Origin: Acidobacteriota bacterium | GTDB taxonomy: Bacteria; Acidobacteriota; UBA4820; DSQY01 | DNA length: 64,000 nucleotides | Direction: 5' to 3' | Assembly (NCBI GenBank): GCA_049967655.1 | Contig: JBMFSH010000006.1 | Span: 32,001 to 96,000, forward strand | Part shown: positions 1-33,183 of the stretch, piece by piece | Layout: each line of letters opens with the position of its first letter | Numbering within the stretch: the stretch's first letter is position 1 | Program-made: the position numbers and the translations under genes | Notes under the pieces: generated by a model | Database searches by the model: none | What the model was told of the DNA's origin: nothing | Seen by the model: the letters and a program-made list of their open reading frames with translations, nothing else

Positions 1-605
1 CCAAGACCGGAGCCTCCCCCAAGACCTCCTACACGAACCTCACCGTGACCATCCCCGGCGTGGTCGGCATCGACATCGAGACCGACCTGACGTGGGACTT
101 CGGCTCCTACCCGGCGGGTAAAATCAGCTCCCCTTCGCCGAACAACCTCTTCCCGCCCCCGCCCTTCAATACGGCCGCCGCCTACTGGACGCCGACGGCG
201 GCCACGACGACCTCCGGTGCGCCCGCCCCCGCTCCCACCTGGACGGCCCCTGCCGGCACCACCGGCGCGGCCGCCATCTGGATGGCCGTTTTCTGCAACA
301 TCAACACCGGCACTTTGACCTTCACCTCCACCTTGGGGAGCTGGAGTGCATCGGATCCCTTTAGCGGAACGGTGTCCGTCCAGGAGGCTGGGGATACGAG
401 CAACAACGCCTTCGGCATCGGCGGAACGTCTTGGGCTTCGCTCTCTTCTACGGCGACTTCACTGACCAAGGGCACGGCGACAGCCACCTTCAACTGGACC
501 CGCGCCGACCAGCTCTTCCAGCTCTATACGAACAACGTCGGGACGGCGACCTTCGTGCCCGGCACCTATACCAACACGGTGACCATCTCCATCGCCAAGG
601 GGTAA
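1..605 (+). CDS. Pilin-like secreted subunit 1 (5'-truncated; probable major subunit)
   Basis: Frame open from position 3 (KTGASPKTSYTNLTVTIPGVVGIDIETDLTWDFG...). Thr/Ser/Gly-rich beta protein. C-terminus PGTYTNTVTISIAKG resembles the GxYxxTV(T) last strand of Csu/SCPU/WxL-like subunits. Paralogous to 663-1358 and 7124-7807. Confidence 0.65.
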   Translation, partial: KTGASPKTSYTNLTVTIPGVVGIDIETDLTWDFGSYPAGKISSPSPNNLFPPPPFNTAAAYWTPTAATTTSGAPAPAPTWTAPAGTTGAAAIWMAVFCNINTGTLTFTSTLGSWSASDPFSGTVSVQEAGDTSNNAFGIGGTSWASLSSTATSLTKGTATATFNWTRADQLFQLYTNNVGTATFVPGTYTNTVTISIAKG

Positions 606-989
606 CGTTCATCTTCCCCCCGCCCGCGTCTCCGGGCGCGGGCGGGGGCCACGGGGGTTTGGGTGACGAGGCTTTCGGGCGTGGTAGCAGGGCTGGTTTT
701 CACGGGGGCGGTGGGGACGGCGCTCTTCGCCGCCGGCGGCGGACTGCGGACCGGCAGCTCCCCTCAGAGCTCGAAGACGACCCTCACCGTGACCATCCCC
801 GGCGTGGTCGGCATCGACATCGAGACCGACCTGACGTGGGACTTCGGCTCCTACCCGGCGGGTAAAATCAGCTCCCCTTCGCCGAACAACCTCTTCCCGC
901 CCCCGCCCTTCAATACGGCCGCCGCCTACTGGACGCCGACGGCGGCCACGACGACCTCCGGTGCGCCCGCCCCCGCTCCCACCTGGACG
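38..989 (+). repeat. Perfect 208-bp direct repeat: 38-245 = 782-989
   Basis: Read base by base; offset 744, first mismatch at 246/990. Near-identity continues to about 302/1046. Confidence 0.95.
617..648 (+). promoter_or_regulatory. GC-rich 14-bp stem-loop (c-UCCG-g tetraloop) after subunit 1
   Basis: CCCCCGCCCGCGTC-TCCG-GGCGCGGGCGGGGG with no U-tract; candidate mRNA stabiliser or attenuator. Confidence 0.6.
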
Positions 990-1358
990 CCCCCTTCCGG
1001 AGACGCCGGCGCGGCCGCCATCTGGATGGCCCTCTTCTGCAACATCGCCGGAGGAGCCAACGTCACGCTCACTGCCCAACTGGCGACGTGGCAGGGAGGC
1101 ACGCCCTTCGGGGGAGCCAATCCGGCTGTAGTTCAAACCCACCGGGACAGCCAAAACAACCCCAAGAAGGTGGGGAGGGGCAACTGGACCACGCTCAAGA
1201 ACGGCACAAACCTCAACCTCGGGCGCGGGAGCCTGGCCAAGAGCTTCCCCTGGACACGGGCCGACCAGCGCTTCTGGCTTTACACAACCAAGGTCTCGGC
1301 GTGCACCTTCAATCCCGGCACCTATACCAACACCGTGACGATCACCCTGAGCAAGTAG
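663..1358 (+). CDS. Pilin-like secreted subunit 2
   Basis: Signal peptide ending LFA|AGG; shares TLTVTIPG..WDFG, FCN, WTRAD and PGTYTNTVTITLSK motifs with subunit 1. Confidence 0.7.
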   Translation: MTRLSGVVAGLVFTGAVGTALFAAGGGLRTGSSPQSSKTTLTVTIPGVVGIDIETDLTWDFGSYPAGKISSPSPNNLFPPPPFNTAAAYWTPTAATTTSGAPAPAPTWTPPSGDAGAAAIWMALFCNIAGGANVTLTAQLATWQGGTPFGGANPAVVQTHRDSQNNPKKVGRGNWTTLKNGTNLNLGRGSLAKSFPWTRADQRFWLYTTKVSACTFNPGTYTNTVTITLSK

Positions 1359-1398
1359 GCGGAGTTTCGAATCGGGCACAAAGCCCGGCGAGGTGACC

Positions 1399-2352
1399 AT
1401 GAGAGGCGACGTGACCCTTCGAGCGGCGATCCTGGCGGCACTGGCCCTTTGTTCCGTGCCCGCCCTCGCCGTGGGCCTGCTGGCCAGCCCCGTCCAGCTC
1501 GGCCTCGTGGGCCGGCCGGGGCAGACCGTGAGCGGCGTGGTGCAGGTGAGCGCCTCCAACAACCAGGACACCCCCATCCGCGTCACCTTCGGCAACTTCA
1601 CAAAGGACGAGGAGGGACGGCTGGTGGAGCTGGCGGAGGGAGCGGAGCAGCCGCGGAGCTGCCTGGCCTGGCTGAGCGCCAGCCAGCTCACCTTCACGGC
1701 CCCGGCCCAGGGGCGGGCCTCGATCCAGGTGTCGGCCCAGATCCCCGAGGGGGTCTCGGGCAGCTACTGGGCCTTCGTGGCCTTCTCGGCCCCCCCTCCC
1801 CCCCGCAACGGGGGGGGGACGAGCCTGCTCTTCATGCCGCGCGTGATCATCCCCGTCATCGTCTCGGTGGAGGGAACCCTGGCCCCCAAGGTCCAGTTTC
1901 AAGCCACCACGGCCCGCTACGACCCCGTGCTCGGGGGCGTGGAGGCCAAGGCCATCCTCGTGAACACGGGCAACGCGGCGGTGCTCATCAACGGGGCCTT
2001 CGCGCTGGAGCAGCAGGGCCCCGGCGACACCTCGCCCAACGAGGTCGGCGAAAAGGAGGTGGGGCCGCTCACCTCCCTGCCGGGCACGCGCCTCGTGGCC
2101 AAGGGGCTGATCCCGTGGAGCGGGCCCTGGACGGGGCTACAGGTCCACTCCTACCTGCGCTACGGCCCCGAGCCCGACCAGGCGGCCGAGTCCGTGACCA
2201 GCATCGCCGACCTGCCCGCCGGAGCGGCTTCGGGCCGCCTCGCCCCTGAGGCGCCCATGCCGCCGGCCGCCAGCCAAACGCCGCCGGCCGCCGGCCAGGC
2301 CCCTCCGCCCCAGGCGCCCGCCGCGCCGTCGAAGGAGGGCGGAAAGCCATGA
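1399..2352 (+). CDS. Periplasmic pilus chaperone-like protein (PapD-like/DUF916-like two-Ig-domain)
   Basis: Signal peptide; SPVQL..PGQTVSG..V, RSCLAWL, P...GSYWA, VNTGNA motifs; Pro/Ala-rich tail. Confidence 0.6.
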   Translation: MRGDVTLRAAILAALALCSVPALAVGLLASPVQLGLVGRPGQTVSGVVQVSASNNQDTPIRVTFGNFTKDEEGRLVELAEGAEQPRSCLAWLSASQLTFTAPAQGRASIQVSAQIPEGVSGSYWAFVAFSAPPPPRNGGGTSLLFMPRVIIPVIVSVEGTLAPKVQFQATTARYDPVLGGVEAKAILVNTGNAAVLINGAFALEQQGPGDTSPNEVGEKEVGPLTSLPGTRLVAKGLIPWSGPWTGLQVHSYLRYGPEPDQAAESVTSIADLPAGAASGRLAPEAPMPPAASQTPPAAGQAPPPQAPAAPSKEGGKP

Positions 2353-3293
2353 AGCGCCGGGCCGCGGTCTTCGCCTTGTCGGTGCTCCTGCTCGCTCCCG
2401 CCGCGCTGAAGGCGGGAACGGGCGGCGCCACCCTCACGGTGACCACCGCCGCCGCGACTTTCGGGCCCCTCGATCCCTCCCTGCCCACCGCCGGCGCCCC
2501 CGTACTGCTGACGGCGCTCGTGAGCGCGGGCGAGGCCTGGAGCGTCTCCCTGCTCTACACGCCCGGCCTCTCGGCCCCGGCCAGCCTGGCCCGCCTGCGG
2601 CGCGCCCAGGCGGTGACCTCGGGCGGCGCCCTGCCGCTTCAGGTGAACGGACCGGGCGGTAGCTGGCAGCCCCTGCCGCCCGGCACGGCCGTGCCGGTGG
2701 CCTCCGGCGGCGCCACGGGGGGCCAAGCCCTTCCCCTCACCCTCATGCTCCAGGCCCAGCCCACCTTCGACCTGCCCGCCGGCGACTACGCGGGCACCCT
2801 CACCTTTCTGCTCAACGGCGCACCCGTCCAACCGACCGTGAGCCTCACGGCCCAGGTGCCTCCCGTGGCCCAGCTCAGCCCCGATCCGCGTCCCTTCACT
2901 CTCACGCGCCCGCCGGACCCGGCCCGCCCCTCGACCATCCCCTTCGAGCCGAGGCTCTACCGCATCCTGAGCAACGTCCCGTGGCAGCTCACGGCCACCC
3001 TCAAGGGCCCGCTCCAGCAGCCGGGCAGCCCTCTCGCGCTCGTCCCCGCCTCCTTCGCCTGGCAGCCGCCCTCGGGACCGGCCCAGCCCCTCCTTCCGAA
3101 CCAGCCCCTCACCGTCGCCTCGGGCCCCATGACCGGCCAGGCGGGGCAGACGGTGAGCCTCACCTTCACCTATACCGTCACGGGCCTCGTGGTGGCCGGC
3201 GACTACCAGGGGGAGATCGCGGTGGAGCTCAACCCCCTCGCCGCCTCGCCACCGGCCGCGTTCAAAAGGAAAAGCCATGCCCAGCATCCCTAA
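2349..3293 (+). CDS. Two-domain pilin-like (minor/linker) subunit
   Basis: Signal peptide; two tandem domains ending AGDYAGTLTF and AGDYQGEIAV; SNVPWQL motif; ATGA coupling to the chaperone. Confidence 0.55.
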   Translation: MKRRAAVFALSVLLLAPAALKAGTGGATLTVTTAAATFGPLDPSLPTAGAPVLLTALVSAGEAWSVSLLYTPGLSAPASLARLRRAQAVTSGGALPLQVNGPGGSWQPLPPGTAVPVASGGATGGQALPLTLMLQAQPTFDLPAGDYAGTLTFLLNGAPVQPTVSLTAQVPPVAQLSPDPRPFTLTRPPDPARPSTIPFEPRLYRILSNVPWQLTATLKGPLQQPGSPLALVPASFAWQPPSGPAQPLLPNQPLTVASGPMTGQAGQTVSLTFTYTVTGLVVAGDYQGEIAVELNPLAASPPAAFKRKSHAQHP

Positions 3294-5814
3294 CTCCCGG
3301 GTGGGCGGCAGGAGCCGCTCCCCTCTCCTCTCCCGAACGGCGCTCGCCCTCGCCTGCGCGGCGCTCCCGCTCCTCGCCGCCCTCCCCGCGGCAGGACAGG
3401 CGTGCTACCAGTCGGTGGTGCTGGGCGGGAATTCGACCGTCAGCTACAGCGCCGGCTTCGCCGTCACTGGGTCGCCGCTCTCCAACCTCAATGCCCTCGA
3501 CGGAAACTATTACCAAGCCACGAGCCTGGTGGAGACGACCAGCACCCCCTCCTTCAAGCCCATGGTCGAGAGCTGGATCGAGACCGGCTACGATACGAGC
3601 GGCAGACTCCCCCAAGTGGGGCCCGACTACTATGGCGGCGTTTTCGTTAACCCCACCAACAGCGCCATCACCGTGAGCCAAGTGGCCATAGACGGCTCCA
3701 CCACGAACCCTGCCAGCCGGCCAGCCTTCGGAGCCATCGTCGCTACCGTGGCGCCCAGCACAGGAAGCTGGAGCGCGGTGAGCACTACCCTCCTCCAGTG
3801 GACGGGCAGCCTGGTCGTTCCTCCGCACGGCGCGCAGGAATTCATCGTCCTGGCCCGCCCGAACCGCGGAAACTACACCAGCCAAACGGACGTGACGCTC
3901 AAGTTCACCGTCACCACCACGACGGGAGGGCCCTACACGGCTAGCATCCACCAGATCCAGGTCAACATCACCACGTGGGCGGCGAGCACGGTGGTCGGGT
4001 TTGATCTCACGGGCAGCAGCACCTTCACACCGCGGGCCTTCGTCTCCGGAGCGGTGGCGGGCGTTGCCCAGACCTTTTCTATTCGCGTGGCCCAGACCGA
4101 TGACAGCAACGAACACAATGAGGATAGTGCTGCTTCTGGACTGCAAGTGACCGTCACCATCCCAGCGGGGTGGTCGAACGTCTCCGTGCCCACACTGACG
4201 AAGTCTTGGTGGAATAACCCCACCATCGTCCAACCGACGGCCACGTCGAGCGGGTCCGTCAGCGCCACGACGAAGAGGGTCCTCTCGACGGGTAGTAGCA
4301 CCCCCGCCAACTCCTTCGTGATTCAGGCCACGCCCCCGAGCGCCACCGATACGACGAACCTCACGGGGCTCTATACCTTCGCCATGACCCTCAACGGCGG
4401 TGCCCAAGGAGACAATTCGCCTATCCAAGGCACAACCCAGGGGATCGTCCAGGTGAGCAACGCGGTGGACGTCCGCTTCCTCTCGCCCGCCTTCACCCTT
4501 TCGAGCCCGTTGCGCCAGCTCGCACTTCGAACGGACTTCAACGTGCTGAGCGGGGCGGAGACGGAGGCGGTGGCCGTTCAAGTCTACAACGTCGCGACCG
4601 CATCCTGGCAACTCCTCTCCACCGTGACGCCTGGAGCCACCAACACCACGGTGACCTACTCCTTCGGAGCCAATTTCAGCTCCTATTTGAACAGCTCCAA
4701 CCAGATGTTGGTACGTTACTTAGTGACGGCCCCGTCGCCCTGGCAACGCGTACGGATCGATGACCTCCTCTGGACGGTGGTCCTGGGCTTCACCGTGGAC
4801 AACTCGGTGGGCAGCGACTCAAACAGCGGCGACGTGGCCCACCCGCTGGCCACCATCGGCGCGGCCCTGAGCCGCCTCACCTCGCCCTCCCAGGCCGTCT
4901 ACGTGCAGGTGGGCAACAGCCAGAGCGGCACCCCCTACACCGCCAACCTCGTGGTGAGCGGCGCCTCCGCCGGGGGCACGCAGACCTGCCCCACGCTCAT
5001 CCAGGGGGTGGCCAACGGCAGCGGCCAGCTCCCCCTCATCCAGGGGGCCAACCCCGCTTCCGACGTGGGCTTCGACGTGGGCGGGGGGGGAGCCAACTAC
5101 GTCACCGTGGACGGCTTCCAGATTCAGAACACGCAGGTGGCCCTCTACGCCGAGCAGGGGGCTACAGGCATCACCTTCTCCCACTGCCTCGTGAGCGTTC
5201 CCGCCTCGGGTTACGGCATTCTCTTCTACGCCAACAGCGGAGCCACGGCCAAGAACAACAAGATCGACGGAAACAACAACTCGACCTTCTACGGGATCTA
5301 CGACTACGCTGGGGTGGGGACCCTTCTGGACGGCAACGTGGTGCGGCGGATGAAGAACGCCGAAGCGCTCTTCTGCACGGGCTCCTCGGGCCTCGTCCTT
5401 AGGCGCAACATCTGCCTCCAGAGCTACATGGGCATCCACCTGGCCCAGCCTGCCGGCACCGTGACGGTCTCCAACAACGACTGCGACAGCAACGCGTACC
5501 TCGGCATCTACGCCGAGCAGGTGGGCGGCACCGTCGTTTCCACCGACAACATCCTCACCTCCAACGGCGTGGGCTGGGGCTGGGACGGAAGCGGCTCGAT
5601 CGTCTCGGACTACGACGACGTCTGGAACAACAAGTCCAACTACGCCTTCCACGGGACGGTGGCCGCCGGCTCCCACAGCATCAGCGCCAACCCCCTCTTC
5701 GTGCAGGTCACCGATTGGACCCAGCCCACCTTCTACCAGCTCGGGAGCGGGAGCCCTTGCATCGGCACGGGGAACAACGTCTGCTGCGGCACCAGCATGG
5801 GAGCGGTCCAATGA
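3277..5814 (+). CDS. Large secreted adhesin-like protein with right-handed beta-helix (pectin-lyase-like) C-terminal domain
   Basis: Signal peptide; Ser/Thr-rich beta region; VDNSVGSDSNSGDVAHPLATIGAAL (DUF1565-type start of a beta-helix); parallel beta-helix repeats; SISANPLFV...YQLGSGSPCIGTG..MGA terminal motif. Confidence 0.75.
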   Translation: MPSIPNSRVGGRSRSPLLSRTALALACAALPLLAALPAAGQACYQSVVLGGNSTVSYSAGFAVTGSPLSNLNALDGNYYQATSLVETTSTPSFKPMVESWIETGYDTSGRLPQVGPDYYGGVFVNPTNSAITVSQVAIDGSTTNPASRPAFGAIVATVAPSTGSWSAVSTTLLQWTGSLVVPPHGAQEFIVLARPNRGNYTSQTDVTLKFTVTTTTGGPYTASIHQIQVNITTWAASTVVGFDLTGSSTFTPRAFVSGAVAGVAQTFSIRVAQTDDSNEHNEDSAASGLQVTVTIPAGWSNVSVPTLTKSWWNNPTIVQPTATSSGSVSATTKRVLSTGSSTPANSFVIQATPPSATDTTNLTGLYTFAMTLNGGAQGDNSPIQGTTQGIVQVSNAVDVRFLSPAFTLSSPLRQLALRTDFNVLSGAETEAVAVQVYNVATASWQLLSTVTPGATNTTVTYSFGANFSSYLNSSNQMLVRYLVTAPSPWQRVRIDDLLWTVVLGFTVDNSVGSDSNSGDVAHPLATIGAALSRLTSPSQAVYVQVGNSQSGTPYTANLVVSGASAGGTQTCPTLIQGVANGSGQLPLIQGANPASDVGFDVGGGGANYVTVDGFQIQNTQVALYAEQGATGITFSHCLVSVPASGYGILFYANSGATAKNNKIDGNNNSTFYGIYDYAGVGTLLDGNVVRRMKNAEALFCTGSSGLVLRRNICLQSYMGIHLAQPAGTVTVSNNDCDSNAYLGIYAEQVGGTVVSTDNILTSNGVGWGWDGSGSIVSDYDDVWNNKSNYAFHGTVAAGSHSISANPLFVQVTDWTQPTFYQLGSGSPCIGTGNNVCCGTSMGAVQ

Positions 5815-5831
5815 GTCGCGGGAGGTGGTTC

Positions 5832-6755
5832 ATGAACAGCGGTCGTTCCGTGGGGAAGGCGGCTCTCGCCGTGATCGTTCTGGCCCTCCCCCTGCCTTTC
5901 CTCGCCCAGCAGGCCGGATTGAACGAGGGTTTCGCCAGCTGGCCCCCACAGGGTTGGACCCTGACGGCCGCTACGGCCTGCGGGGGCTGGCAGAGCTCAT
6001 CGAGCTTGGGACTCCCCAACTACACGGGGGGGAGCGGGCCGTGCGCCATGGCGTCGAGCGCCGCTTGCGATGCCGGAGCGGACCTCTCCCTCATCAGCCC
6101 CGCCATCGCCATTGCACCGGGCGCGGCGGCGCCGACGCTGACCTTCAAACAGGACCTCTTCCTGGGCACCTACGGCAGTGACAGCGCCGAGGTGGACGTG
6201 AGCGGCGACGGCGGCCAGAGCTGGACCAGCGTGGCCTACTTCACGGGCACGGGGGGCGTCCGGGGCCCCGACATCCAGAGCATCGACCTCAGCCCCTATA
6301 TGGGGAGCACCATCCAGATCCGTTTCCACTACATGGCAGGCGGACCCGATTGGTGGTGGCAGGTGGATGACGTGGTGGTGACCGGCGGCGGCAGCCCTCC
6401 TCCTCCACCCCCGCCGCCCACCACCTACAACCTCTATTTCCAAGATGATTTTGGCCGTTCCTCCTTGTGCGCCGACAGCTCCACCGGCGCCTGGAGCTAC
6501 ACGGTGCTGAAGGGCAACGGGGCCGGGAGCAGCTTCGCGGGCCAGGGAAGCATCATCCAGGGCAACGGCTTCCTTCAGATTCGTTCACTGCCCGGAGCTT
6601 CCGCCCTCACCCTCATCGACTACACCACGGCGCATCGAGCCACGGCCACCTTCGTGAACCGTTCCAACGCCATCGCCTCCAGCCTGTACGACTCGAACAC
6701 CCAGGACGACGGTCCCCCCGCTTGCGGATCGGGGGCCAATTCGGTTCACGGCTAA
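5832..6755 (+). CDS. Secreted protein: jelly-roll (MAM/cleaved-adhesin/InhA-like) domain + poly-Pro linker + C-terminal beta domain
   Basis: GGAGGT RBS; NEGF..WPPQGWT, LISPAI, VDVSGDGGQSWT, IQIRFHY, WWWQVDDV motifs; PPPPPPPP linker. Confidence 0.7.
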   Translation: MNSGRSVGKAALAVIVLALPLPFLAQQAGLNEGFASWPPQGWTLTAATACGGWQSSSSLGLPNYTGGSGPCAMASSAACDAGADLSLISPAIAIAPGAAAPTLTFKQDLFLGTYGSDSAEVDVSGDGGQSWTSVAYFTGTGGVRGPDIQSIDLSPYMGSTIQIRFHYMAGGPDWWWQVDDVVVTGGGSPPPPPPPPTTYNLYFQDDFGRSSLCADSSTGAWSYTVLKGNGAGSSFAGQGSIIQGNGFLQIRSLPGASALTLIDYTTAHRATATFVNRSNAIASSLYDSNTQDDGPPACGSGANSVHG

Positions 6756-6780
6756 CCAAGAAACCAGAAGAACGATGGAG

Positions 6781-6813
6781 AAGGCGGACGCTCTCAAGGG
6801 GCGTCCGCCTTTT
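6781..6813 (+). terminator. Rho-independent terminator of the fibre operon
   Basis: AAGGCGGACGC-loop-GCGTCCGCCTTTT. Confidence 0.8.
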
Positions 6814-7027
6814 GCTGGCCTGAACTTCCCTCTCCGGCCTTCCTCCTGTCCACTGCCTGCCCGCCCTCCCTTCCTGCCTGCTCGCCGAGTCAGCTCCTTC
6901 GCGAACTCTTCTCAATCTCAAAAGTGAGACCGCCCTCCCGCTCACTTCTCACATCCTAGACAATTGTGGGTTCACTCCAATTGGACTTTTTTCCATATTT
7001 TGCATACGAGTAACGCGATATTGTTCA

Positions 7028-7118
7028 CTCTCCGCCGACAAGGCATGGGAGTTGCCTTAAGAGAAGCGGCGCCCTTCTTCCAAAGGCGTCGCTTGCCGGC
7101 ACTTGGTCGGCTGGAGGG
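7028..7118 (+). promoter_or_regulatory. Candidate structured 5' leader sequestering the RBS of subunit 3
   Basis: 7028-7039 pairs with 7106-7118 (includes GGAGGG); two internal hairpins. Confidence 0.4.
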
Positions 7119-7123
7119 AAACG

Positions 7124-7807
7124 ATGAGCGACCGAAGAAAGAGGACCTACACCGCCGGCTTGGCGTTGCTTTTTGTCAGCTGCACCTTCGGTCTCTTTGC
7201 CGCTGGCGGACTGAGCACATCTCCCGACCGGGCGCACAGCTCCACCACCCTCACCGTGACGATCCCTGGAATCGTCGCAGTGGATGTGGAGGGCGAGCTC
7301 GCCTTCGATCTGGGCTCCGCCGGTTCCAATCGGAGCGAGCGGCAAGCCCAAGGGGGAGAGGTCAGAAACGTCTTCCCCCCTCCACCGAACTATCACGGTC
7401 CCCTCGTCTTCGACGCTTCGAACACGCGCATCGAATCGGCCCTGGCCGCCGCGCCGCCCGCTTCCGGAAGCCTCGCCGTGGCGATCTTCTGCAACAAGGA
7501 GCACGGAAACCTCCAAATCCAGGCCGCCGTGGGCCCCACCTGGTCCCCGGCAAGCGGCCCGGGATTCCCCACCAGCGCCATCCGAATCCGGCAGAGCTCG
7601 GAAAACAACCCGTACGGCGTGGGCGGAGCGCAACCCGTCCACCTCTCCAGCGCGTTGACCCCCCTGAGTCTGGGCACCCTACCCAACCGCTTCGCGTGGA
7701 CCCGTATGGACCTGCACTTTGACATCGAACTGCCCGATGCCTCCAAGGTGCTGCCCCGTCCCGGTACCTACACTACGGTCATCACGCTGACGGTGACCAA
7801 GTCTTAG
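7124..7807 (+). CDS. Pilin-like secreted subunit 3 (divergent paralog)
   Basis: GGAGGG RBS; LFA|AGG signal; TLTVTIPGIVAVDVEGELAFDLG, FPPPP, FCN, WTRMD and PGTYTTVITLTVTKS motifs. Confidence 0.7.
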   Translation: MSDRRKRTYTAGLALLFVSCTFGLFAAGGLSTSPDRAHSSTTLTVTIPGIVAVDVEGELAFDLGSAGSNRSERQAQGGEVRNVFPPPPNYHGPLVFDASNTRIESALAAAPPASGSLAVAIFCNKEHGNLQIQAAVGPTWSPASGPGFPTSAIRIRQSSENNPYGVGGAQPVHLSSALTPLSLGTLPNRFAWTRMDLHFDIELPDASKVLPRPGTYTTVITLTVTKS

Positions 7808-7986: not shown

Positions 7987-10900
7987 TCAACCCTTTCCTT
8001 CCAACATCCTGGCCAGCTCCGCCGCGGGCATGGGGCGGGCACAGTGGAAGCCCTGCACGGCGTCACAGCCGATGCCGGCCAGGAAGTGGAGCTGCTCGGC
8101 CGTCTCCACCCCTTCGGCCACGACCGAGAGGTGCAAGCCATGAGAGAGGTTGATGATGGCCTGCACGATGGCGACGTCACGGAGGTCCAGCGGTAGCTCC
8201 CTGACGAAAGCCTGCGGTATCTTCAGCAAGCGGATGGGAAGCTGCTTCAAGTACATGAGGGAGGAGTAGCCAGAGCCGAAGTCGTCGATGGCGATGGCGA
8301 CCCCCATCTCATCGAGCTGGTTGAGAATGCGCATGGTGCTCGCCAGGTCCCACATGGCCGTGGCCTCCGTGATTTCGAGTACGAGCTGTGAAGAGGGCAG
8401 TTCCGTCTCTTCGAGAATCGCATGGACCAGGGCAGCCGACCCCGGCTTCAGAAACTGGCGTGCCGAGAGGTTGACGGAGACGGGAACCTGGAGGAAGCCG
8501 GCGTCGTTCCAGGCTCGGCGTTGGGTGCACGCGGTCCTGAGCATCCACTGGTCGATGGAGAGAATGAGGTCGCTCTCCTCGGCCACCTCGATGAAGCTCC
8601 CTGGCAAGACGAGCTCCCCTTCCTCTTGCCGCCATCGCACGAGGGCCTCCACGCCGAGGACGCGCTCGCTCGTGCTCGCCTGGATGATCTGGTAGAAGGC
8701 CTCCAGCTCACCCCTCTCCAGCGCGCGGCGCAGCCTCTGCCTCAAATCCGCCCGCTCTGAGACCATCCGGCTCATGCTCTCGGTGAAAAATTCCACGGTG
8801 GCCCCGCCGTAGCGCTTGGCTCTCCCCATGGCAATGTCGGCGCAGCGCAGGAGCGCCTCGGGAGTGGGGCCATCTTCGGGGTAGAAACTGACTCCAGCGG
8901 AGAAGCCGAGGTGATAGTCCTGGGAAGCTACCCGGATAGGCGGACGGAACGTTTCGGTGAGAAGGCGTAAGTAGGCATCCACCCCCTTGCATCGCTCCTC
9001 TCCCGCCAACACGAGGACGAATTCATCGCTCCCTAAGCGGGAAGCCTCGCTGTTCGGCAGGCGGATCAGGCGGCGCGCCGTTTCCCGCAGCAGTTCGTCC
9101 CCCACCTCTTGGCCGACCGTATCGTTGATTTCTTTGAAACGGTCCAGACCCAGCAGGATGACCGCGAGTCTCTCCCGGCCACGGGCGCAGTTATCCAGAT
9201 GCTTGGAGAGGCGGTCCTGGAGGAGCAGGCGGTTGGGGAGGCCCGTAAGACCATCGTAGTGGGCGAGGTAGGCGAGCTGTTCCTCGGCCTGTTTGCGGTC
9301 CGTGATGTCGAAGGCCATCACCACGACGGCGTTCTGTCCGCCGTAGGGGATCTCGCTGGCAGTGAAATCCATCCAGCGGGGCTGGCCAGCTTTGGTGACG
9401 ATCTTGAATTCGTAGTGGGAGGGAACGCTCTCCCCCTTCTGGCGCGCCATGCCCCGCTGCCGGACCAACTCGCGATGGTCAGGGTGAACGAGCTCCCAGA
9501 AGCGAAGCCGCAGGAACTCTTCACGGCTGTAGCCGGTCATCGCCAGAGCGGCGGGATTGCCATAGAGGATCCGTTCGCCCTGGTAGATGAGGATCCCGGC
9601 GGCGCTCGCCTCGGTAAGCATGCGGAACTTGTGCTCACTATTTCGAAGGGCCTCTTCTCCACGCATGCGTTCGATGGCCATGGCAACCTGGCTCGCCACG
9701 AGCGTGAGGGACTCCTGGTGTCTCGGTTCGAATCGAACCTCGTCGCCGTAGGAATAAACGCCCATGACACCGAGCAATCGGTCTTTCAGGCGAAGGGGCA
9801 CTCCCAGCCATGCGGTACAGTTGAGGACGCCGGCAGCCACCTCGTCCGAAGCGGCCAGATCACGAAGCCTCGAAGCGTCTGCCAGCAAGGGCTTCCGGTG
9901 ATCGAAAACCCACCGTTCGGGCCCATGATCCGGTGCGGCGCAGGGTGTATCTTCGGACCGCTCATCTGCCCGGTAGGCGTAGGCAAGGCCTGCCGTTTCC
10001 TGTCGCTCCAGGACCACGAAAAAATTGCGCGCCGGGACCAAGTGCTGCAAAGCCTCGTGAACTGCGGGCAGGAATCGGTCGAGCGAATCCGCGGAGAGGG
10101 AGGCCTGGGCAATGGCGTAGAGCGCCGACTGGAGCCGTTCACTGCGCCGGCGCTCGGTGATGTCCACCAAGGTGACGACCCCGGCTGGCTTCCCGTTCAT
10201 GTGTGCCCTGGCCAGGGTGCAATCCACCCATCGGCGCTGGCCGTGCTTGGTGATGATCTGCAAATCGAAGCGTCGGGGAGCGAACTCGCCGGCGAGGCAA
10301 GCCCGGCCCAGCTCGCGGACCTGGCCGCGAAAGCGCGGATGGACTCCTTCCCAGAAAAACATGGCTTGGAGCTCCTCGAAGCTGGCTTCCGCGATCTCCA
10401 AGGCGGAGGAGTTAGCGTAGACGAAACGGTCCTCCTGAAAGACGAGGATACCGGCGGCGCTCGTCTCCGCGAGGGTCTTGAAGCGGGCCTCGCTCTCTCG
10501 CACCTCCTCCTCCGCCTGCTTCAGGGCCGTGATGTCGATCATGCTTCCCTCTAAAACCGGCTCCTCATAGCGGGGATCGTCGACGAGGGTGACGTTTTCG
10601 AGAATCCAGGCTGGCGAGCCATCCAACCGCCGACACAGCCACTGGAGATTGGTGATCTCTCCCATCTCGCGAAGCTGGGCGAGGTAAGCCTCGCGGTCTT
10701 CCGAACGGGGAAAGATCTCTTCAGCGGAATGGCGCATCATCTCCTCGACTGAAGCCGCTCCGAAGATTGAGGCCAAGCGCTCGTTGCACTCCAGGATCCT
10801 TCCGTCTTGGGCGGTTCGGAAAACCCCAGCCACGTTTCGTTCGAAGAGCAGGCGGAAGCGTTCCTCCCGTTCCCGAAAGGCCCTCTCTGCCTGCTCCCTT

Positions 10901-12228
10901 TTCTGGCGCTCGGCGAAAGCAGTGAGAGCGTATTCCAGATCGCCCGCCAGTTCTGCGAGCAAGGCCCTCTCCTCGGATTCGAAGGTGTGCCCTTGGCTGG
11001 CGTACACGGTCAAGGCGCCTCGGAGGTCGCCCCCCTGGCGCAGCGGGAGAATAGCCACGAGCCCGAGACCGCAGGCGCGTACCGGCTCCCGCCAGGGCTC
11101 GTACAGGGGATCGGATTGCGCGTTGTGAATGGTGACGATGGGTTCCTGCAGGCGGGAAAGGACGGCCTCGATCACGGGGCACTGAAAATCGCCCCCGTGG
11201 ACGAGAGCGCAGAAGCCGGATGCCGCACCGTTCTGAAAGCCCGCCACCCAGCGTCCGCTCCCTGGCTCCCGGAGCAGGGCGCATGCGAGGGGATACCCGC
11301 CCTCCGCCGTCAGGATGCGGCAAGTCTCGCTCAGCACGGCCCGGTCGCTCTCCGCCCGCACCAGCATCTGGTTGATCGCGGAGAGGGTGCGGTAGAGTCG
11401 GTTTTGCTGTGCGAGTCTGGCCTCTGCGAGCTTGCGCTCGCTGATGTCCCAGACCGAATCGATGAGGGCCGGCTTCCCCCTGAAAAGGGTTCTCCCCACG
11501 CTGAGATCGATCCAGCGCTCCTGCCCGTCCTTCCGAAGGATCTTGAACTCGTAGCGGTGGGGCGGATCGGCCCCGCGAAGGCGCGAGGCCGTGCGCGAAC
11601 CCACGAGCTCCCTGAAATCGGGATGGACCACCTGCAGGAAATGCATGGAGAGTAGTTCTTCCCTGGTGTAGCCCGTGAGCGCCTCCGCGGCCCGGTTGAC
11701 CTCCACGAAGTGCTGGTCCTGGAGAATGAAGATGGTCGCGGCCGCTCCGTCCACCAATGCATGGAAATGGGCCTCCAACTCGTGGAAGCGCTCCTCGGCC
11801 TGTTTCCGCTCCGAGATGTCCCGCGCGACGACAATCCAGGATTGCGCCCTGTTAAACGTCAGAGGGCGGACGGCCATTTCGGCCGGGAAGGGACCCCTCT
11901 GCCGGTGGAGCTGAACGGTTTCAAACACCGGAATATCGGTATTGGGGCTTGAGCGGAAGCGCTCTTCTACGAAGGCAGCCGTTCCTTTGGCCTGCAGATC
12001 GGCCAGAGAAAGGCTCCTCAGCTCCTTTTCCTTCCAGCCGTACATGCTTTCAGCGGCCCGGTTGGCCTCCAGGATGCGCCCCTTGGCGTCCGTCAGCAGG
12101 ACGGCGTCCCGGCCAACCTCCCAAAGGGACAGGAGAAAAGCCGGTCTAACCCCAGGCCCTTTGCCGGAGGCGCTTCGGTTGAGGCGGTCCCGGCCAGCCT
12201 TGGAGTGACGCGTGCGCTGCTCATCCAT
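7987..12228 (-). CDS. Multi-PAS/GAF sensor GGDEF-EAL protein (probable c-di-GMP phosphodiesterase)
   Basis: Five PAS/PAC domains (DISERK/DITERR ends) and two GAF domains; degenerate GSDEF; EAL, DDFGSGYSS and AEGVE intact. Confidence 0.9.
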   Translation of the reverse strand: MDEQRTRHSKAGRDRLNRSASGKGPGVRPAFLLSLWEVGRDAVLLTDAKGRILEANRAAESMYGWKEKELRSLSLADLQAKGTAAFVEERFRSSPNTDIPVFETVQLHRQRGPFPAEMAVRPLTFNRAQSWIVVARDISERKQAEERFHELEAHFHALVDGAAATIFILQDQHFVEVNRAAEALTGYTREELLSMHFLQVVHPDFRELVGSRTASRLRGADPPHRYEFKILRKDGQERWIDLSVGRTLFRGKPALIDSVWDISERKLAEARLAQQNRLYRTLSAINQMLVRAESDRAVLSETCRILTAEGGYPLACALLREPGSGRWVAGFQNGAASGFCALVHGGDFQCPVIEAVLSRLQEPIVTIHNAQSDPLYEPWREPVRACGLGLVAILPLRQGGDLRGALTVYASQGHTFESEERALLAELAGDLEYALTAFAERQKREQAERAFREREERFRLLFERNVAGVFRTAQDGRILECNERLASIFGAASVEEMMRHSAEEIFPRSEDREAYLAQLREMGEITNLQWLCRRLDGSPAWILENVTLVDDPRYEEPVLEGSMIDITALKQAEEEVRESEARFKTLAETSAAGILVFQEDRFVYANSSALEIAEASFEELQAMFFWEGVHPRFRGQVRELGRACLAGEFAPRRFDLQIITKHGQRRWVDCTLARAHMNGKPAGVVTLVDITERRRSERLQSALYAIAQASLSADSLDRFLPAVHEALQHLVPARNFFVVLERQETAGLAYAYRADERSEDTPCAAPDHGPERWVFDHRKPLLADASRLRDLAASDEVAAGVLNCTAWLGVPLRLKDRLLGVMGVYSYGDEVRFEPRHQESLTLVASQVAMAIERMRGEEALRNSEHKFRMLTEASAAGILIYQGERILYGNPAALAMTGYSREEFLRLRFWELVHPDHRELVRQRGMARQKGESVPSHYEFKIVTKAGQPRWMDFTASEIPYGGQNAVVVMAFDITDRKQAEEQLAYLAHYDGLTGLPNRLLLQDRLSKHLDNCARGRERLAVILLGLDRFKEINDTVGQEVGDELLRETARRLIRLPNSEASRLGSDEFVLVLAGEERCKGVDAYLRLLTETFRPPIRVASQDYHLGFSAGVSFYPEDGPTPEALLRCADIAMGRAKRYGGATVEFFTESMSRMVSERADLRQRLRRALERGELEAFYQIIQASTSERVLGVEALVRWRQEEGELVLPGSFIEVAEESDLILSIDQWMLRTACTQRRAWNDAGFLQVPVSVNLSARQFLKPGSAALVHAILEETELPSSQLVLEITEATAMWDLASTMRILNQLDEMGVAIAIDDFGSGYSSLMYLKQLPIRLLKIPQAFVRELPLDLRDVAIVQAIINLSHGLHLSVVAEGVETAEQLHFLAGIGCDAVQGFHCARPMPAAELARMLEGKG

Positions 12229-28859: not shown

Positions 28860-29542
28860 TGAAAAAACGACTGCTTTCTCTCGCATTCCTGGCGATCTCC
28901 GTGGTTGCCCTGGCCGGGGTCGTTCGGGTGCTGGCCCAGGCCGAGCCTTCGCAGGAGCCCCTGCCCCTCCGCGCCGCCCTGGCCGAACAGGAGGCCAGGC
29001 TGGCCACCTCGAACACCTTCTACCTCGAACTGGATCTCTCCCATCCTGCCATCAAGCTCTGCCATTCGGGAGTGGCCCTTGCTACCTATCCGATCGACTC
29101 CCTCAAGGTGGGGTATCCACGCATCTTCTTCTTCCCCCGGATGCATGAGGGGAAATGGATCGGCGAAATCTGGACCGGGGGCCACCTCATACCCCCGAAG
29201 ATCATCAACCGGATCCGCATCACGCCGGGAAGCGTGCCTTCGGCTGAAATCGCGGTTCCCGCCTTGATTCCGCCGACCATGTCCGATCTGATCCCCGTTC
29301 CACCCGTCTACACCATCGTTTTCGACGGCGGGAGAGTCATCCGCGTAACTCTGGTCGGAAAGATCACCGGAGCCGTCGGCCAGCCTGACAAGGAGCGGGG
29401 TTGGTGGGCGGACTTCTTGGCGGGTCTGGGCGTCCGGAGGGCGGACTCACTCCGCATCAGCGCCAGCATGCCGGCCAACGACGGGGCCGCCCTCTTCCGG
29501 TCCTTTCCCGACAAGCCTCCAGAACTCCTGATCCTACCGTAG
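28859..29542 (+). CDS. Degenerate YkuD-like protein without catalytic His/Cys
   Basis: Signal/TM segment; FYLELDLS...IKL.HSGV.L..YPI start resembles YkuD; no HG..GC; TGATG coupling. Confidence 0.5.
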   Translation: MKKRLLSLAFLAISVVALAGVVRVLAQAEPSQEPLPLRAALAEQEARLATSNTFYLELDLSHPAIKLCHSGVALATYPIDSLKVGYPRIFFFPRMHEGKWIGEIWTGGHLIPPKIINRIRITPGSVPSAEIAVPALIPPTMSDLIPVPPVYTIVFDGGRVIRVTLVGKITGAVGQPDKERGWWADFLAGLGVRRADSLRISASMPANDGAALFRSFPDKPPELLILP

Positions 29543-30328
29543 GCCCCGGAGCTCAAAGAGGCGAGTCCAAACGGCCGGCTCGACCTGGTTCGGCCTGGCC
29601 AGGCGATCGACCTCCACGCGTTCCAGGATCGCCGGCCAGCTTTCCACCGCATAACCCAGCGAGCGTCCCACCGCGCCCATGGCCTTCCGAGGCGAGGCGA
29701 AGGCCATCCGCAAGAAGGACCAGAAGCGCTCCTGCTCGTTCGGAGGAAGGCTTGCCCGCTCCTTCGGATCGAAGCGGCAGACGGCGGAGATCACCTTCGG
29801 GCAAGGCCTGAAGGCGCCTGGGGGGACCGAGAACAGCAGGCGGCGTTTCCACCAGCCGTCCGTCCAGACGGCGAGGGGGCCGTATCCCTCCCCTCCCGCG
29901 CTCGCACAGAACTTCCAGGCCACCTCCCGCTGGAGCATGACCACGGCGGAAGCCACTTCGCCCGGGCGCGAGAGGATTCTCCGCAAGATCTCCGTCCCCG
30001 CGTTGTAGGGAAGGTTGCCCACCACCAGCCACCTTGCGCCGCTCCCCGCCAGCTTCGGCAGGTCGAGCTCGCGTGCGTCCCCAAGCACTACGCGGAGGTC
30101 GGGCCGCTCTCGCGCGAGGGCCGCCGCCAGCTCCCGGTCCACCTCCACGGCCCACGTGGGAAGGTGCAGGTCGAGGAGACCCGACGTGAGCGCGCCGCCT
30201 CCCGGCCCGATCTCGAGGAGGGCGGTGGCCGAAGTGGAGGCCTCCCTCGCGGCCCCAAGGATTCGCTGAATCCAGACGGAATCCACGAGGAAATGCTGGC
30301 CCAGCGACTTCTTCGCCCGCGCGAGCAT
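29534..30328 (-). CDS. rsmA: 16S rRNA m6,2A dimethyltransferase
   Basis: KKSLGQHFL, LEIGPG, VGNLPYN and MLQREVA motifs. Confidence 0.93.
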   Translation of the reverse strand: MLARAKKSLGQHFLVDSVWIQRILGAAREASTSATALLEIGPGGGALTSGLLDLHLPTWAVEVDRELAAALARERPDLRVVLGDARELDLPKLAGSGARWLVVGNLPYNAGTEILRRILSRPGEVASAVVMLQREVAWKFCASAGGEGYGPLAVWTDGWWKRRLLFSVPPGAFRPCPKVISAVCRFDPKERASLPPNEQERFWSFLRMAFASPRKAMGAVGRSLGYAVESWPAILERVEVDRLARPNQVEPAVWTRLFELRGLR

Positions 30329-30337
30329 GGGCCCGGA

Positions 30338-30940
30338 TCACGCGCCGTGGCGCAGGCGCTCCAGCGCCATGAAGATCTCACGGCCCACCCAGGCGTCCGT
30401 GGCGGCGTAGGAGATCTGGGCGGGGGCGAGTTCCGGCCTGCTCCAGTCCGACATCTTGGCCCGCTTGGAAACGCGGAATCCCAGCAGGCTCGCCGCGAGT
30501 CCCTTCAGGCCGTTGGCGGGGACCCCCGCCTCCGATGATAGTGTGGCGAGATCCACGAATCCCCTCGGTTCGAAGGTGTAGACCTCCTGGAGCTTCCGGA
30601 CATCGTAACCGGGCGCCACGCCCACCTTCAGGACGGCCGGATCGGACAGCAGGGCCAGCACCGGCCCCAGCCGATGGAGCCTCAGGAGCTGGAAGAGATA
30701 GGCTTCGGTGCCGCTGGAGAGCTGGAGGATGGCGGGAGGGTTGACCTGCCCCTTCGCAAAGGAGGGCTTGGTCTCCGTGTCGAAGCCCAGCACTCGTTCG
30801 CGGCCGAGCCGCTCGGCCGCGGAGCCCACCTGGGCGTCCGAATGGACCAGGTAGATGCTCCCCTCGAAACGCCGGATGGGGAGTGCGTTGATCGTCTCGG
30901 CCGTCCATTCCTGCCTGGGATCCGGTGCGGCGCCGTCCAA
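30338..30940 (-). CDS. 3'-5' exonuclease (DEDDy, RNase D/WRN-like)
   Basis: LGFDTETKP, SDW and YAATDAW motifs. Confidence 0.9.
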   Translation of the reverse strand: MDGAAPDPRQEWTAETINALPIRRFEGSIYLVHSDAQVGSAAERLGRERVLGFDTETKPSFAKGQVNPPAILQLSSGTEAYLFQLLRLHRLGPVLALLSDPAVLKVGVAPGYDVRKLQEVYTFEPRGFVDLATLSSEAGVPANGLKGLAASLLGFRVSKRAKMSDWSRPELAPAQISYAATDAWVGREIFMALERLRHGA

Positions 30941-31064
30941 CTCCGCCTCCTGCCTGCTCTCCCGGAATCACTGCGGGATTGATAGTGTAGCACGCCCGCT
31001 CTCCCCCTGGGCCACCTCTCGAACGGCTCCAGTGTTATAGTGATCACAACCAAGGAGGCACGCC

Positions 31065-31271
31065 ATGAACGAGAAGGTGTTCAAGAAGATTCGCGTCGTG
31101 GGCTGCAGCCCGGAGAGCTACCAGAAGGCCGTGGAATCGGCCGTGGTGAAGGCCGGGGCGTCGGTGCACGGTATGGCCTGGTTCGAGGTGGTGGAATTGC
31201 GCGGGGCCATCCAGGACGGCAAGACCTCCGAATGGCAAGCCACCGTGGAGATCGCATTCAAGGTGGAGTAA
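31065..31271 (+). CDS. Dodecin (flavin-binding)
   Basis: VFKKIRVVGCSPES..WFEVVELRG..WQATVEIAFKVE. Confidence 0.92.
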   Translation: MNEKVFKKIRVVGCSPESYQKAVESAVVKAGASVHGMAWFEVVELRGAIQDGKTSEWQATVEIAFKVE

Positions 31272-31439
31272 GGCTGGGGCTGAACCAGGACCAGGCTCCC
31301 GATCCGGAGGATCGTGGAAGAGGCACAGCGTTGTCGTGCCGGTATCTCGGTGCACTCGTCGGAAAGCCCCCACGCCACCGGCGGGACCCTCCTGATCCTT
31401 CAGAGACTTCCCGCGCCGGCCCGTAGAGTTCCTCCGCGC

Positions 31440-31588
31440 CACTCCACCAGAAACGGTCCAGGTCCACGGCGCCGTTCCGGAAGAGCACCCCTTCCGCCTG
31501 GAGCAAGGCCTGCTGGAGGTTGGTCTCTCCGTCGGCCTCCGAAAGAGGAGAGATCCGGCCTCGGACGTTGAGAACCCGGTGCCAGGGC
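31440..31588 (-). pseudogene. C-terminal remnant of an alkyltransferase-like (ATL/MGMT) gene
   Basis: PWHRVLNVRGRIS...QQALLQAEGVLF..GAVDLDRFWW; N-terminal half missing. Confidence 0.75.
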
Positions 31589-31765
31589 GCTGATGAGGCG
31601 GTCGTTCGTCCCGCAGCAGCCGCCCAGGAGGTTGAGCCCCCACCGTCGCCGGAGGCCCAGCGTCTGCGCGGCGAGGGACTAGGGCGAGTCGGAGGCCTCC
31701 AGAACGGGGCTTTCTCCCAGCCCTTCGGGGGCCGTGTCCGAGCCCTTGGCCTGCAGGCCAAGCCA
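31580..31765 (-). pseudogene. C-terminal remnant of a homocysteine S-methyltransferase-family gene
   Basis: GLQAKGSDTAPEGL...DSP*SLAAQTLGLRRRWGLNLLGGCCGTNDRLISALA; in-frame TAG at 31679-31681. Confidence 0.7.
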
Positions 31766-31839
31766 TGGCTGGACGAGCCATCCAGGCCAGAGGCCCTCGC
31801 GAAGCGGCCAGCGGGCACGAAGGGCTCGCAACGCTCGAT

Positions 31840-33183
31840 TCATGATGGACCTCTCCTGGAGTTCAAGAGGCGCCCGGGGGCCGTGGCGCGGCGGAAGGAG
31901 GGCATGAGGAAGAGGACGGCGGCGATCCGGCCGAAGAGGAGGGCCCCCGCGGCGGCCGTGGCCCCCACCAGCCCGGCCGTTCGGATACCCACGAAGAGCG
32001 CGAGCGCGATGCTGGCCACCTCCAGGGCGGTGGCGAAACTGACGGGCCGCGTGTTGCGGGCCGATACCAGCATGCCGTGCTGAAAGGAGAGGAGCACGGA
32101 GAAGGCGGGCATGATCGCCATGATGCGGGTGGGCACGACCGCCACGCTCGCCAGGGCCGGCGAGAGCCCCGAGAGCCCCCGCAGCCAGAGGTGCAAGAGG
32201 GGGCTGAAGGCGATGACCGCCAGCCCTCCCGCGGCCGCCGCCGCCAGGGCGCTGGCGAAGCGTCGCAGCGGACGGTACCCCTCACGCTGGGGCCCGGCGA
32301 GGGCGATGCTCACGTCCTGGAAGGCCAGCCCGAGGCTTCGGAAGATGAACACGAGGGCGTTGACCACCGGGAGCACGGCCAGGGACTCGATGCCCAGGCG
32401 GCTGGAGGGCATGAAGAAGGTGACGAGCGGGTTGACCCCCATGCTCAGGATGGAGGTGAGGGCCAAGGGGGTATAGAAGTGCCAGATGTAGCGGTAGCTG
32501 AGCGGCTCCGGCCCCGCACCGCCGGAAGCCGTCCCCTTCATCGCCCGAAGGAGCCGCTGCGCCATCAGCCGGCTGGAAACCGCCTCCACTACGACCCCCG
32601 CCGACAAGGAGGCGGCGCCCACCACGGCGCCGGGCGCGTGCCAGCCGAGGGAGAGCAGGAGCGCGACGCCCCCCATGGAGACCACGCGAAGAACGGTGCC
32701 GTAGGCCACCCGCCGTGCGAGGCCGTTCCGGACGAGGATGCCCTGATAGAAGCGGCGGTATCCGATGGATGCGGGCCAGGGCAGGAGGAGCAGGCACGCC
32801 AGGTGGGTCAACCCCACGAGGTTCTCGGGAAGTCCCATCAGCCCGCCGGCCACGCGCTCGAAAAGCGGAGGCCAAAGGCTCACGGCCATGATGGACGTCA
32901 GGGCCGCGTTCAGGGAGAAGACGAAATTCCTCAGCTTCAGGTAGCAGGCCCAGTCCTCGGCGAGCGCCGTGGAGGTGCTCATGACGAGGAGGATGGGCGA
33001 TTCCACGAGGAGGGCCACGGCGTAGGCCACGCCGTAAGCGGCCAGGTTAAGGGTGGGGGACGGCAAGCGGGCGATGACCGCGGCGAGGAAGGGTCCCTCC
33101 ACCGACATCATCAGCCACGTCCCGGCCAGAGGCGCCCAGAAGGCCAGAATGCGCCGCTGCGTCAGACTGGATTCGCCAGCCAC
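31840..33183 (-). CDS. MATE/ANKH-like multi-pass transporter
   Basis: About 12 TM segments in two repeats; FWAPLA..., LAAYGVAY...ESP motifs. Confidence 0.7.
   Translation of the reverse strand: MAGESSLTQRRILAFWAPLAGTWLMMSVEGPFLAAVIARLPSPTLNLAAYGVAYAVALLVESPILLVMSTSTALAEDWACYLKLRNFVFSLNAALTSIMAVSLWPPLFERVAGGLMGLPENLVGLTHLACLLLLPWPASIGYRRFYQGILVRNGLARRVAYGTVLRVVSMGGVALLLSLGWHAPGAVVGAASLSAGVVVEAVSSRLMAQRLLRAMKGTASGGAGPEPLSYRYIWHFYTPLALTSILSMGVNPLVTFFMPSSRLGIESLAVLPVVNALVFIFRSLGLAFQDVSIALAGPQREGYRPLRRFASALAAAAAGGLAVIAFSPLLHLWLRGLSGLSPALASVAVVPTRIMAIMPAFSVLLSFQHGMLVSARNTRPVSFATALEVASIALALFVGIRTAGLVGATAAAGALLFGRIAAVLFLMPSFRRATAPGRLLNSRRGPS

Follow-up and report, generated by a model that had tools for sequence, protein, structure and literature searches.

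How a bacterium could build a surface fibre from donor-strand subunits when a chaperone gene is in view and an usher gene is not is the question raised by the left end of a 64,000-nucleotide stretch of Acidobacteriota DNA (GenBank assembly GCA_049967655.1, contig JBMFSH010000006.1, forward-strand positions 32,001 to 96,000; this whole stretch is referred to here as the window). The initial annotation described a same-strand cluster of seven genes at window positions 1–7807, cut by the left window edge, and proposed a distinct class of chaperone-assisted fibre that might be assembled without an usher. Open reading frame (ORF) analysis returned the same seven genes, on one strand and in the same places, with the gene for subunit 1 open at the edge. 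That positions 1–7807 contain no usher is literally true because the edge falls downstream of a gene for a large usher-like pore protein, which ends 85 nt before window position 1. We conclude that the locus is very probably a chaperone-usher pilus operon of a divergent type. Its chaperone would lend the subunits a donor strand, donor-strand exchange would link them and a barrel predicted to be 26-stranded and plug-less would assemble and export the fibre. In our judgement it represents a branch of the chaperone-usher pathway that is divergent and without a plug; the idea of a fibre stands and that of usher-less assembly falls.

The position of the pore gene bears directly on the latter idea. 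Its stop codon is separated from the ATG of subunit 1 by 3 nt on the same strand, and in all related loci with the same subunit type (9/9) the first subunit gene is immediately preceded by a pore gene, although these nine loci are kin and not independent. A fibre assembled without an usher, as in WxL/Elr or Pam pili, with the barrel gene as a mere passenger, is very improbable given this conserved arrangement. The Elr pilus of Enterococcus (10.64898/2026.10.17.759780) resembles the present system in its chaperone-guided donor-strand exchange, proposed here; in contrast, it uses a membrane-anchored chaperone and a sortase, has no usher and, in the accessible part of that source, is reported as confined to Bacillota. 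Some traits do recall such systems. Among 11 chaperones scanned from distant loci, three gave weak WxLIP_PGBD matches (E 4e-5 to 2e-3, below the cut-off) and one a weak PapD_N match; chaperone genes without a nearby barrel gene occur in two loci (L043 and L044); and the named Atlas clusters nearest to the subunit are SCPU (0.93, 15% of members) and WxL (0.91, 56% of members), the nearest clusters of all being unnamed (0.96), with Deinococcota, Melainabacteria and Omnitrophota as their commonest phyla. Against this, the chaperone ends in a Pro-rich tail and has, by eye, no membrane anchor, unlike 96.7% of WxL chaperones and unlike Pam chaperones. The named relatives are Acidobacteriota, a phylum whose members possess an outer membrane. 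The genome (99.3% complete) yielded no sortase, and neither a PF00577 usher nor a PapD_N match, positive controls being detected for all three. As had been annotated for sortase and prepilin signals, no LPxTG, lipobox or prepilin motif is found in any of the eight proteins checked (8/8), and none of the window proteins matches WxL or WxLIP.

The predicted architecture of the pore protein is that of a modified usher. An AlphaFold2 model built from 27 sequences (mean pLDDT 80.5) includes a small N-terminal beta domain (about residues 48–153), 26 long strands described as amphipathic (residues 178–672) and two small transthyretin-like C-terminal beta domains (about residues 700–883). A short helix (427–430) lies between strands 13 and 14, with 13 strands before and 13 after it, and the turns mostly alternate between short and long, as in an outer membrane barrel with both ends periplasmic. 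The longest gap between strands is 17 residues and there is no plug-sized insert. The count of 26 was taken from the secondary structure of the model and not from its coordinates, and that all 26 strands lie in the wall is an assumption. In the accessible parts of the sources consulted, PapC is described with its plug between β6 and β7, a β5–6 hairpin and a helix between β13 and β14 (PMC4356140), FimD with 24 strands and five domains (PMC11459180), and Fim/Usher barrels in a survey of strand counts with 16 and 24 strands only (10.64898/2026.03.07.710327). The pore protein shares with FimD and PapC the order of N-terminal domain, barrel and two C-terminal domains (CTD1 and CTD2), and with PapC the helix at β13–14 and, judging from a short motif, the β5–6 hairpin: a GD...RG motif spans the end of strand 5 and the start of strand 6. 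It differs from both in lacking a plug between β6 and β7, the usher plug site being occupied by a 3-residue turn which leads to strand 7; in having two strands more than a 24-strand barrel, both after the helix; and in its unrelated N-terminal domain, which is swapped or absent in distant members of the family. What is predicted is a pore wider than those of known ushers and without a built-in plug.

A Foldseek search and, over part of the protein, profile comparison point to ushers. When the model was searched with Foldseek, ranks 1–12 were all FimD or PapC (E 4e-19 to 3e-10), the first non-usher having an E-value of 4e-10. For profile comparison we assembled 14 canonical ushers, consisting of E. 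coli FimD, HtrE and EcpC together with 11 PF00577-positive proteins of the same phylum; one of 12 canonical usher loci (L067) yielded no ORF and was excluded. The comparison was made piecewise, with FimD domain boundaries that are in part our assumption; a global HHalign over the whole length misaligned the first half. The C-terminal domains of the pore protein match the 14-usher profile at 95–97%, and strands 11–14 with the helix loop at 69.5%. Barrel against barrel the score is 42.7, compared with at most 29.4 for 50 block-shuffled controls and 17.7 for the reversed sequence. In 14/15 barrels of the family the GD...G motif of strands 5–6 leads into a short turn and F[AGT]G (11 found by pattern and three by eye, the remaining one being without that part), while in 8/14 canonical ushers another sequence, of plug type, comes after the motif. 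A profile of the usher plug found no match within the pore barrel, and no PapC_N-type N-terminal domain was detected in the pore protein by profile or by Pfam, whose weak matches there (SdrD_B and CarboxypepD_reg) are confined to the C-terminus.

The chaperone provides the second link to known pili. Its profile (29 rows) matches that of four archaic chaperones from the same phylum (HHalign 98.6%, E 1e-15), a fifth having been dropped as mis-extracted. It does not match the FimC/YadV pair (3.4%), and the window chaperone itself has no Pfam match. Since GSYW stands where the archaic profile has ktYR, the invariant carboxylate-binding Arg, whose position is deduced, is probably replaced. For the chaperone and subunit 1 a complex was predicted with a score of 0.87, compared with 0.00 for the best of three controls; the mark applied is reached by 116/157 solved complexes and 2/215 mismatched pairs. 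Contacts agree between runs to at least 97% and the partners have a pLDDT of at least 88. In the predicted complex, a donor strand of the chaperone (residues 140–154) runs parallel to the last strand of the subunit and touches its first core strand, in the register 119/197, 121/199, 123/201 and 125/203, with L145, F147, P149 and V151 as the likely donor residues. Chaperone-usher and WxL/Elr chaperones likewise pair in parallel with the last strand according to one section of a partly accessible source (10.64898/2026.10.17.759780, section 8). Binding of subunit 1 by donor-strand complementation is thus what the model predicts. Residues 1–22 of mature subunit 1 are outside the named interface of this complex. 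Together with the match to archaic chaperones and the lack of SCPU matches, the complex upholds the earlier view of a chaperone-assisted, donor-strand type of fibre distinct from Csu.

The three subunits are paralogues with pairwise identities of 61, 36 and 35%. The motifs xLTVTIPG, FCN, WTRxD and FPPPP are present in all three (3/3), as had been annotated; the terminal motif PGTYTxTxTxTxxK, also listed as common to them, is exact in subunit 2 only and one position off in subunits 1 and 3. The alternating N-terminal strand is kept in all three and is predicted in subunit 1 as a free donor strand (residues 24–45), with an acceptor strand at the C-terminus (residues 215–228). The single conserved cysteine of the initial annotation holds insofar as FCN occurs in every copy, but subunit 2 carries a second Cys and FCN is replaced by FSN in 3/28 rows of the family. 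Many relatives have a pair of Cys flanking the Pro-rich insert, which is absent from the three copies in this genome; with no conserved Cys pair and no SCPU match, the reported lack of a Csu disulfide pair is borne out. A divergent distal subunit like subunit 3 is also found in loci L006, L007, L014 and L016. The genes for subunits 1 and 2 have an exact 208-nt block in common (window 38–245 and 782–989), which may be the result of a recent gene conversion or of a collapse in the assembly; the orthologous pair of L014 shares at most 45 nt exactly and is 76–77% like the 208-nt block.

The closeness of the chaperone to archaic chaperones, and a subunit layout that is Csu-like by eye, might indicate an ordinary archaic (sigma, Csu-type) operon that the profile libraries had missed. 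This is largely refuted and we regard it as scarcely credible. PF00577 matches none of the 27 close barrels (0/27), none of the nine distant ones (0/9) and nothing in the genome, yet the same model is positive in 13/401 genomes of the phylum. Likewise, the SCPU model has no match in the genome; its controls were silent, but it did find SCPU in 10/10 other genomes selected for their ushers. The absence of a plug, the 26 strands and the lack of an SCPU match and of a conserved disulfide pair in the pilins also argue against it. The initial annotation had reasoned that a canonical usher directly upstream, together with Csu-family matches, would make this an ordinary archaic pilus. A pore gene does lie upstream, but it is not a PF00577 usher and the subunits have no Csu or SCPU match, so the operon does not encode an ordinary archaic pilus. 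Compared with the archaic Csu/CupE pili, as described in part of PMC4654587, the present system is alike in its homologous PapD-type chaperone, its predicted donor-strand complementation, the short N-terminal strand of alternating pattern that immediately precedes the first core strand and the two-domain subunit in the operon. It differs in the predicted 26-stranded, plug-less pore, in subunits with a Pro-rich insert and a conserved terminal Lys and without an SCPU match or Cys pair, in the additional 845-aa beta-helix protein and in GSYW in place of ktYR in the chaperone. It probably works like a chaperone-usher pilus and is outside the PF00577 usher family and the SCPU/Csu class by their defining features.

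A number of observations pull away from a divergent chaperone-usher operon. In Foldseek, the TM-scores with FimD reach no more than about 0.3. VIA-align places porins and MtrB (Z 14.1, rmsd 7.9, 422 aligned residues) above the PapC pore, which comes 44th (Z 11.3, rmsd 5.6, 356 aligned), and a second rigid-body look gave no usher among the top 50. The N-terminal domain and strands 1–6 have no profile match to the 14 ushers, so that the register of strands 5–6 depends on a short motif and a strand count, and the C-terminal domains have a common fold whose best sequence matches are SdrD/NOMO-type repeats. The subunits have no match in Pfam, NCBIfam or PDB sequences, compare at only 2.5% (HHalign) with a profile of 17 SCPU pilins and gave as single chains a poor model (pLDDT 50) for which fold searches returned nothing clear. 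The high score of the predicted complex may reflect its likeness to solved chaperone-pilin pairs, and the subunit reaches a pLDDT of 86 beside an unrelated partner too, so that the prediction lends no support to chaperone-dependent folding. Finally, the adhesive fibre itself is a prediction from genes and modelled structures.

Several of these points could be explained by a barrel not descended from ushers, that is, an unrelated 26-strand pore joined to SdrD-like domains and adapted to a convergent role: generic barrels outrank ushers in rigid-body comparisons, and the N-terminal domain, the plug and strands 1–6 remain without a profile match. Such convergence appears improbable. The domain order is identical to that of ushers, the hairpin motif at strands 5–6 and the helix loop at strands 13–14 are placed as in PapC, the barrel match surpasses 50/50 shuffled controls and the chaperone that partners it shares ancestry with archaic ones. 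We regard the pore protein as an usher homologue without a plug and with an additional hairpin; that it is homologous in its barrel too is likely, though not proven. In the VIA-align rows for TonB-dependent receptors, the alignments start at model residues 77–115, set against the N-terminal parts of the receptors, a hint that the model may place the N-terminal domain at the lumen, residues 77–85 being of low confidence.

These elements suggest how the divergent chaperone-usher machine might operate. All parts would be exported by Sec, signal peptides of the cluster proteins having been assigned by eye. In the predicted complex, chaperone strand 140–154 would complete the subunit beside its first core strand, and in the growing fibre it would be replaced by strand 24–45 of another subunit, inserted into the preceding one. 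By homology with CTD1 and CTD2 of FimD, the two C-terminal pore domains would hold the last chaperone-subunit pair. Our guess is that, at rest, conserved loops (259–270, 298–313 and 416–432) most probably narrow the pore or a subunit fills it. The two-domain subunit may start the fibre at its tip, with the 845-aa beta-helix protein as adhesive cargo. The former is an internal duplicate, one half of which matches the single-domain subunits of distant loci (93%, profile) and which has a weak profile match to SCPU (28%). It shows by eye no obvious N-terminal donor strand, which fits a tip position, and by analogy with two-domain archaic tip proteins it is likely to be a tip or initiator. The 845-aa protein is kept in 8/8 complete close loci, its own included, and has no pilin-like domain, none of six subunit profiles matching it; it is likely an adhesin or cargo, its attachment being unexplained. 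The accessory protein with the choice-of-anchor J domain varies among relatives: four of the other seven complete close loci contain a match, which mostly covers its first domain. The earlier recognition of a two-domain chaperone, a beta-helix protein and a jelly-roll protein agrees with the profile results.

The conservation of the 845-aa protein, which is not pilin-like, raises another possibility, namely that the same machine makes a short tip-only or non-fibrillar product: a stalk bearing this protein, or a coat layer. The products of some atypical chaperone-usher operons are not pili, the Myxococcus spore coat being an example (PMC13734109, in the part accessible), and a wider pore would suit bulky cargo. 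We consider such a product unlikely, if less so than the other alternatives raised here. The alternating N-terminal strand is present in all three subunits and in subunit 1 is outside the predicted chaperone interface, which would permit open-ended chains, and in distant loci, where no homologue of the 845-aa protein was detected, several subunits are retained.

The distribution of these genes was assessed among 401 genomes of the phylum, and all loci compared (nine related and 14 distant) are probably from Acidobacteriota. The subunit profile matches 4/401 genomes and 0/3 genomes of the same genus, which makes the distribution of the close form patchy. Matches to the chaperone profile occur in 18/401, of which one unpublished genome was left out of further analysis. 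A gene for a barrel with C-terminal domains stands beside the chaperone gene in 11/14 distant loci, usually with small subunit-like genes; two of the other three have no barrel gene and one ends at a contig edge. The plug-less type is thus present in at least 13/401 genomes (the source genome, a genome designated G056 and 11 more) and PF00577 in 13/401, G056 belonging to both sets. Look-alikes of the barrel in the Atlas, to be taken as leads only, belong to clusters in which Pseudomonadota, Omnitrophota, Bacteroidota, Synergistota and Thermodesulfobacteriota are among the commonest phyla.

The family is diverse in its accessory features. In the pore proteins the N-terminal domain is exchanged for a Cu_amine_oxidN1 domain in L053 and L055 and, with a weak match, in L056, which also has a C-terminal SPOR domain; proteins of about 660–680 aa in L046, L047 and L052 have no N-terminal domain. 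The barrel ORF of L049 (5070–7250, minus strand) encodes 547 aa only, without the part that carries the strand 5–6 motif, and may be split or mis-started. Second, more distant chaperones are encoded in L008 (11869–13194), L017 (20175–20543), L042 (13923–14756) and L044 (7714–8529). Most of them adjoin one or two short subunit-like genes without a pore gene of their own nearby, and they may use the pore of the main operon. G056 (contig C75, about 94000–114700) carries, within about 20 kb, a plug-less operon, another chaperone related to it and an entire canonical archaic operon with SCPU subunits, a PapD_N chaperone and a PF00577 usher, which offers a natural side-by-side comparison of the two types.

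The main interest of the system is the plug-less pore and what closes it at rest. The usher plug closes a very large resting pore and helps to recruit subunits (PMC3960871, in the part accessible); if our reading is true, the plug-less family represents another way to seal the outer membrane and provides a test of the role of the plug. No naturally occurring usher is described as plug-less or as having 26 strands in the literature searched, which left most subscription papers and supplements outside, so that a prior mention is possible; nor is the family described in the accessible parts of PMC4390875, PMC4827864, PMC10629564, PMC13734109, PMC13278184 and 10.1101/2025.10.22.684050. On balance we lean towards an undescribed class, with a 26-strand plug-less usher which Pfam does not see and which occurs in roughly as many of the phylum's sampled genomes as the canonical usher, probably extending to many diderm phyla, with new modes of gating and subunit recruitment, perhaps suited to the export of bulky cargo, perhaps reflecting a state that preceded the plug, and with a chaperone between the archaic and WxL types. 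Because PF00577 misses plug-less pores, surveys of pili would undercount them in environmental bacteria. The system also offers candidate producers for orphan donor-strand fibrils seen by environmental cryo-EM. The orphan TLP-1a/b fibrils (PMC11494351, in the part accessible) are alike in having donor-strand Ig-like subunits. The link to TLP-1 (9IKJ/9IKK) is unconfirmed: the subunit family has no sequence match to it, and it is absent from the 50 rows of a fold search made with the low-confidence subunit model.

Table 1. Genes of the probable plug-less chaperone-usher operon, with window positions unless a contig position is indicated.
Gene product	Position	Strand	Basis or remarks
Usher-like pore protein, 902 aa	contig 29207–31915, wholly upstream of the window	+	ORF and model
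Subunit 1, likely major pilin, 228 aa in full	1–605, open at left edge; ATG at contig 31919	+	ORF
Subunit 2, 231 aa	663–1358	+	61% identity to subunit 1
Two-domain periplasmic chaperone, 319 aa, Pro-rich tail	1393–2352	+	profile and predicted complex
Two-domain subunit, 314 aa	2349–3293	+	internal repeat, 42% over 57 aa
Exported protein, 845 aa, C-terminal beta-helix	3277–5814	+	Pfam Beta_helix, E 1e-10, residues 646–775
Exported accessory protein, 314 aa	5811–6755	+	choice-of-anchor J jelly-roll domain (37–190, above cut-off), poly-Pro linker, second domain
Subunit 3, divergent paralogue, 227 aa from ATG at 7124	7124–7807, after a gap of about 350 nt	+	ORF

Library scans of the cluster proteins with Pfam and NCBIfam returned solely the beta-helix, a weak GH114-associated domain and the choice-of-anchor J domain, and searches of PDB sequences with the pore, chaperone and subunit profiles returned no usher, chaperone or pilin. 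A promoter scan gave two weak sites compared with 0.4 expected, one of them about 60 nt upstream of the pore gene, and terminator predictions were at chance level. Convergent on the end of the cluster (window 7987–12228, minus strand) is a gene for a 1413-aa multi-PAS/GAF protein with, by eye, apparent GGDEF and EAL domains, and control of the pilus by c-di-GMP through this protein is possible.

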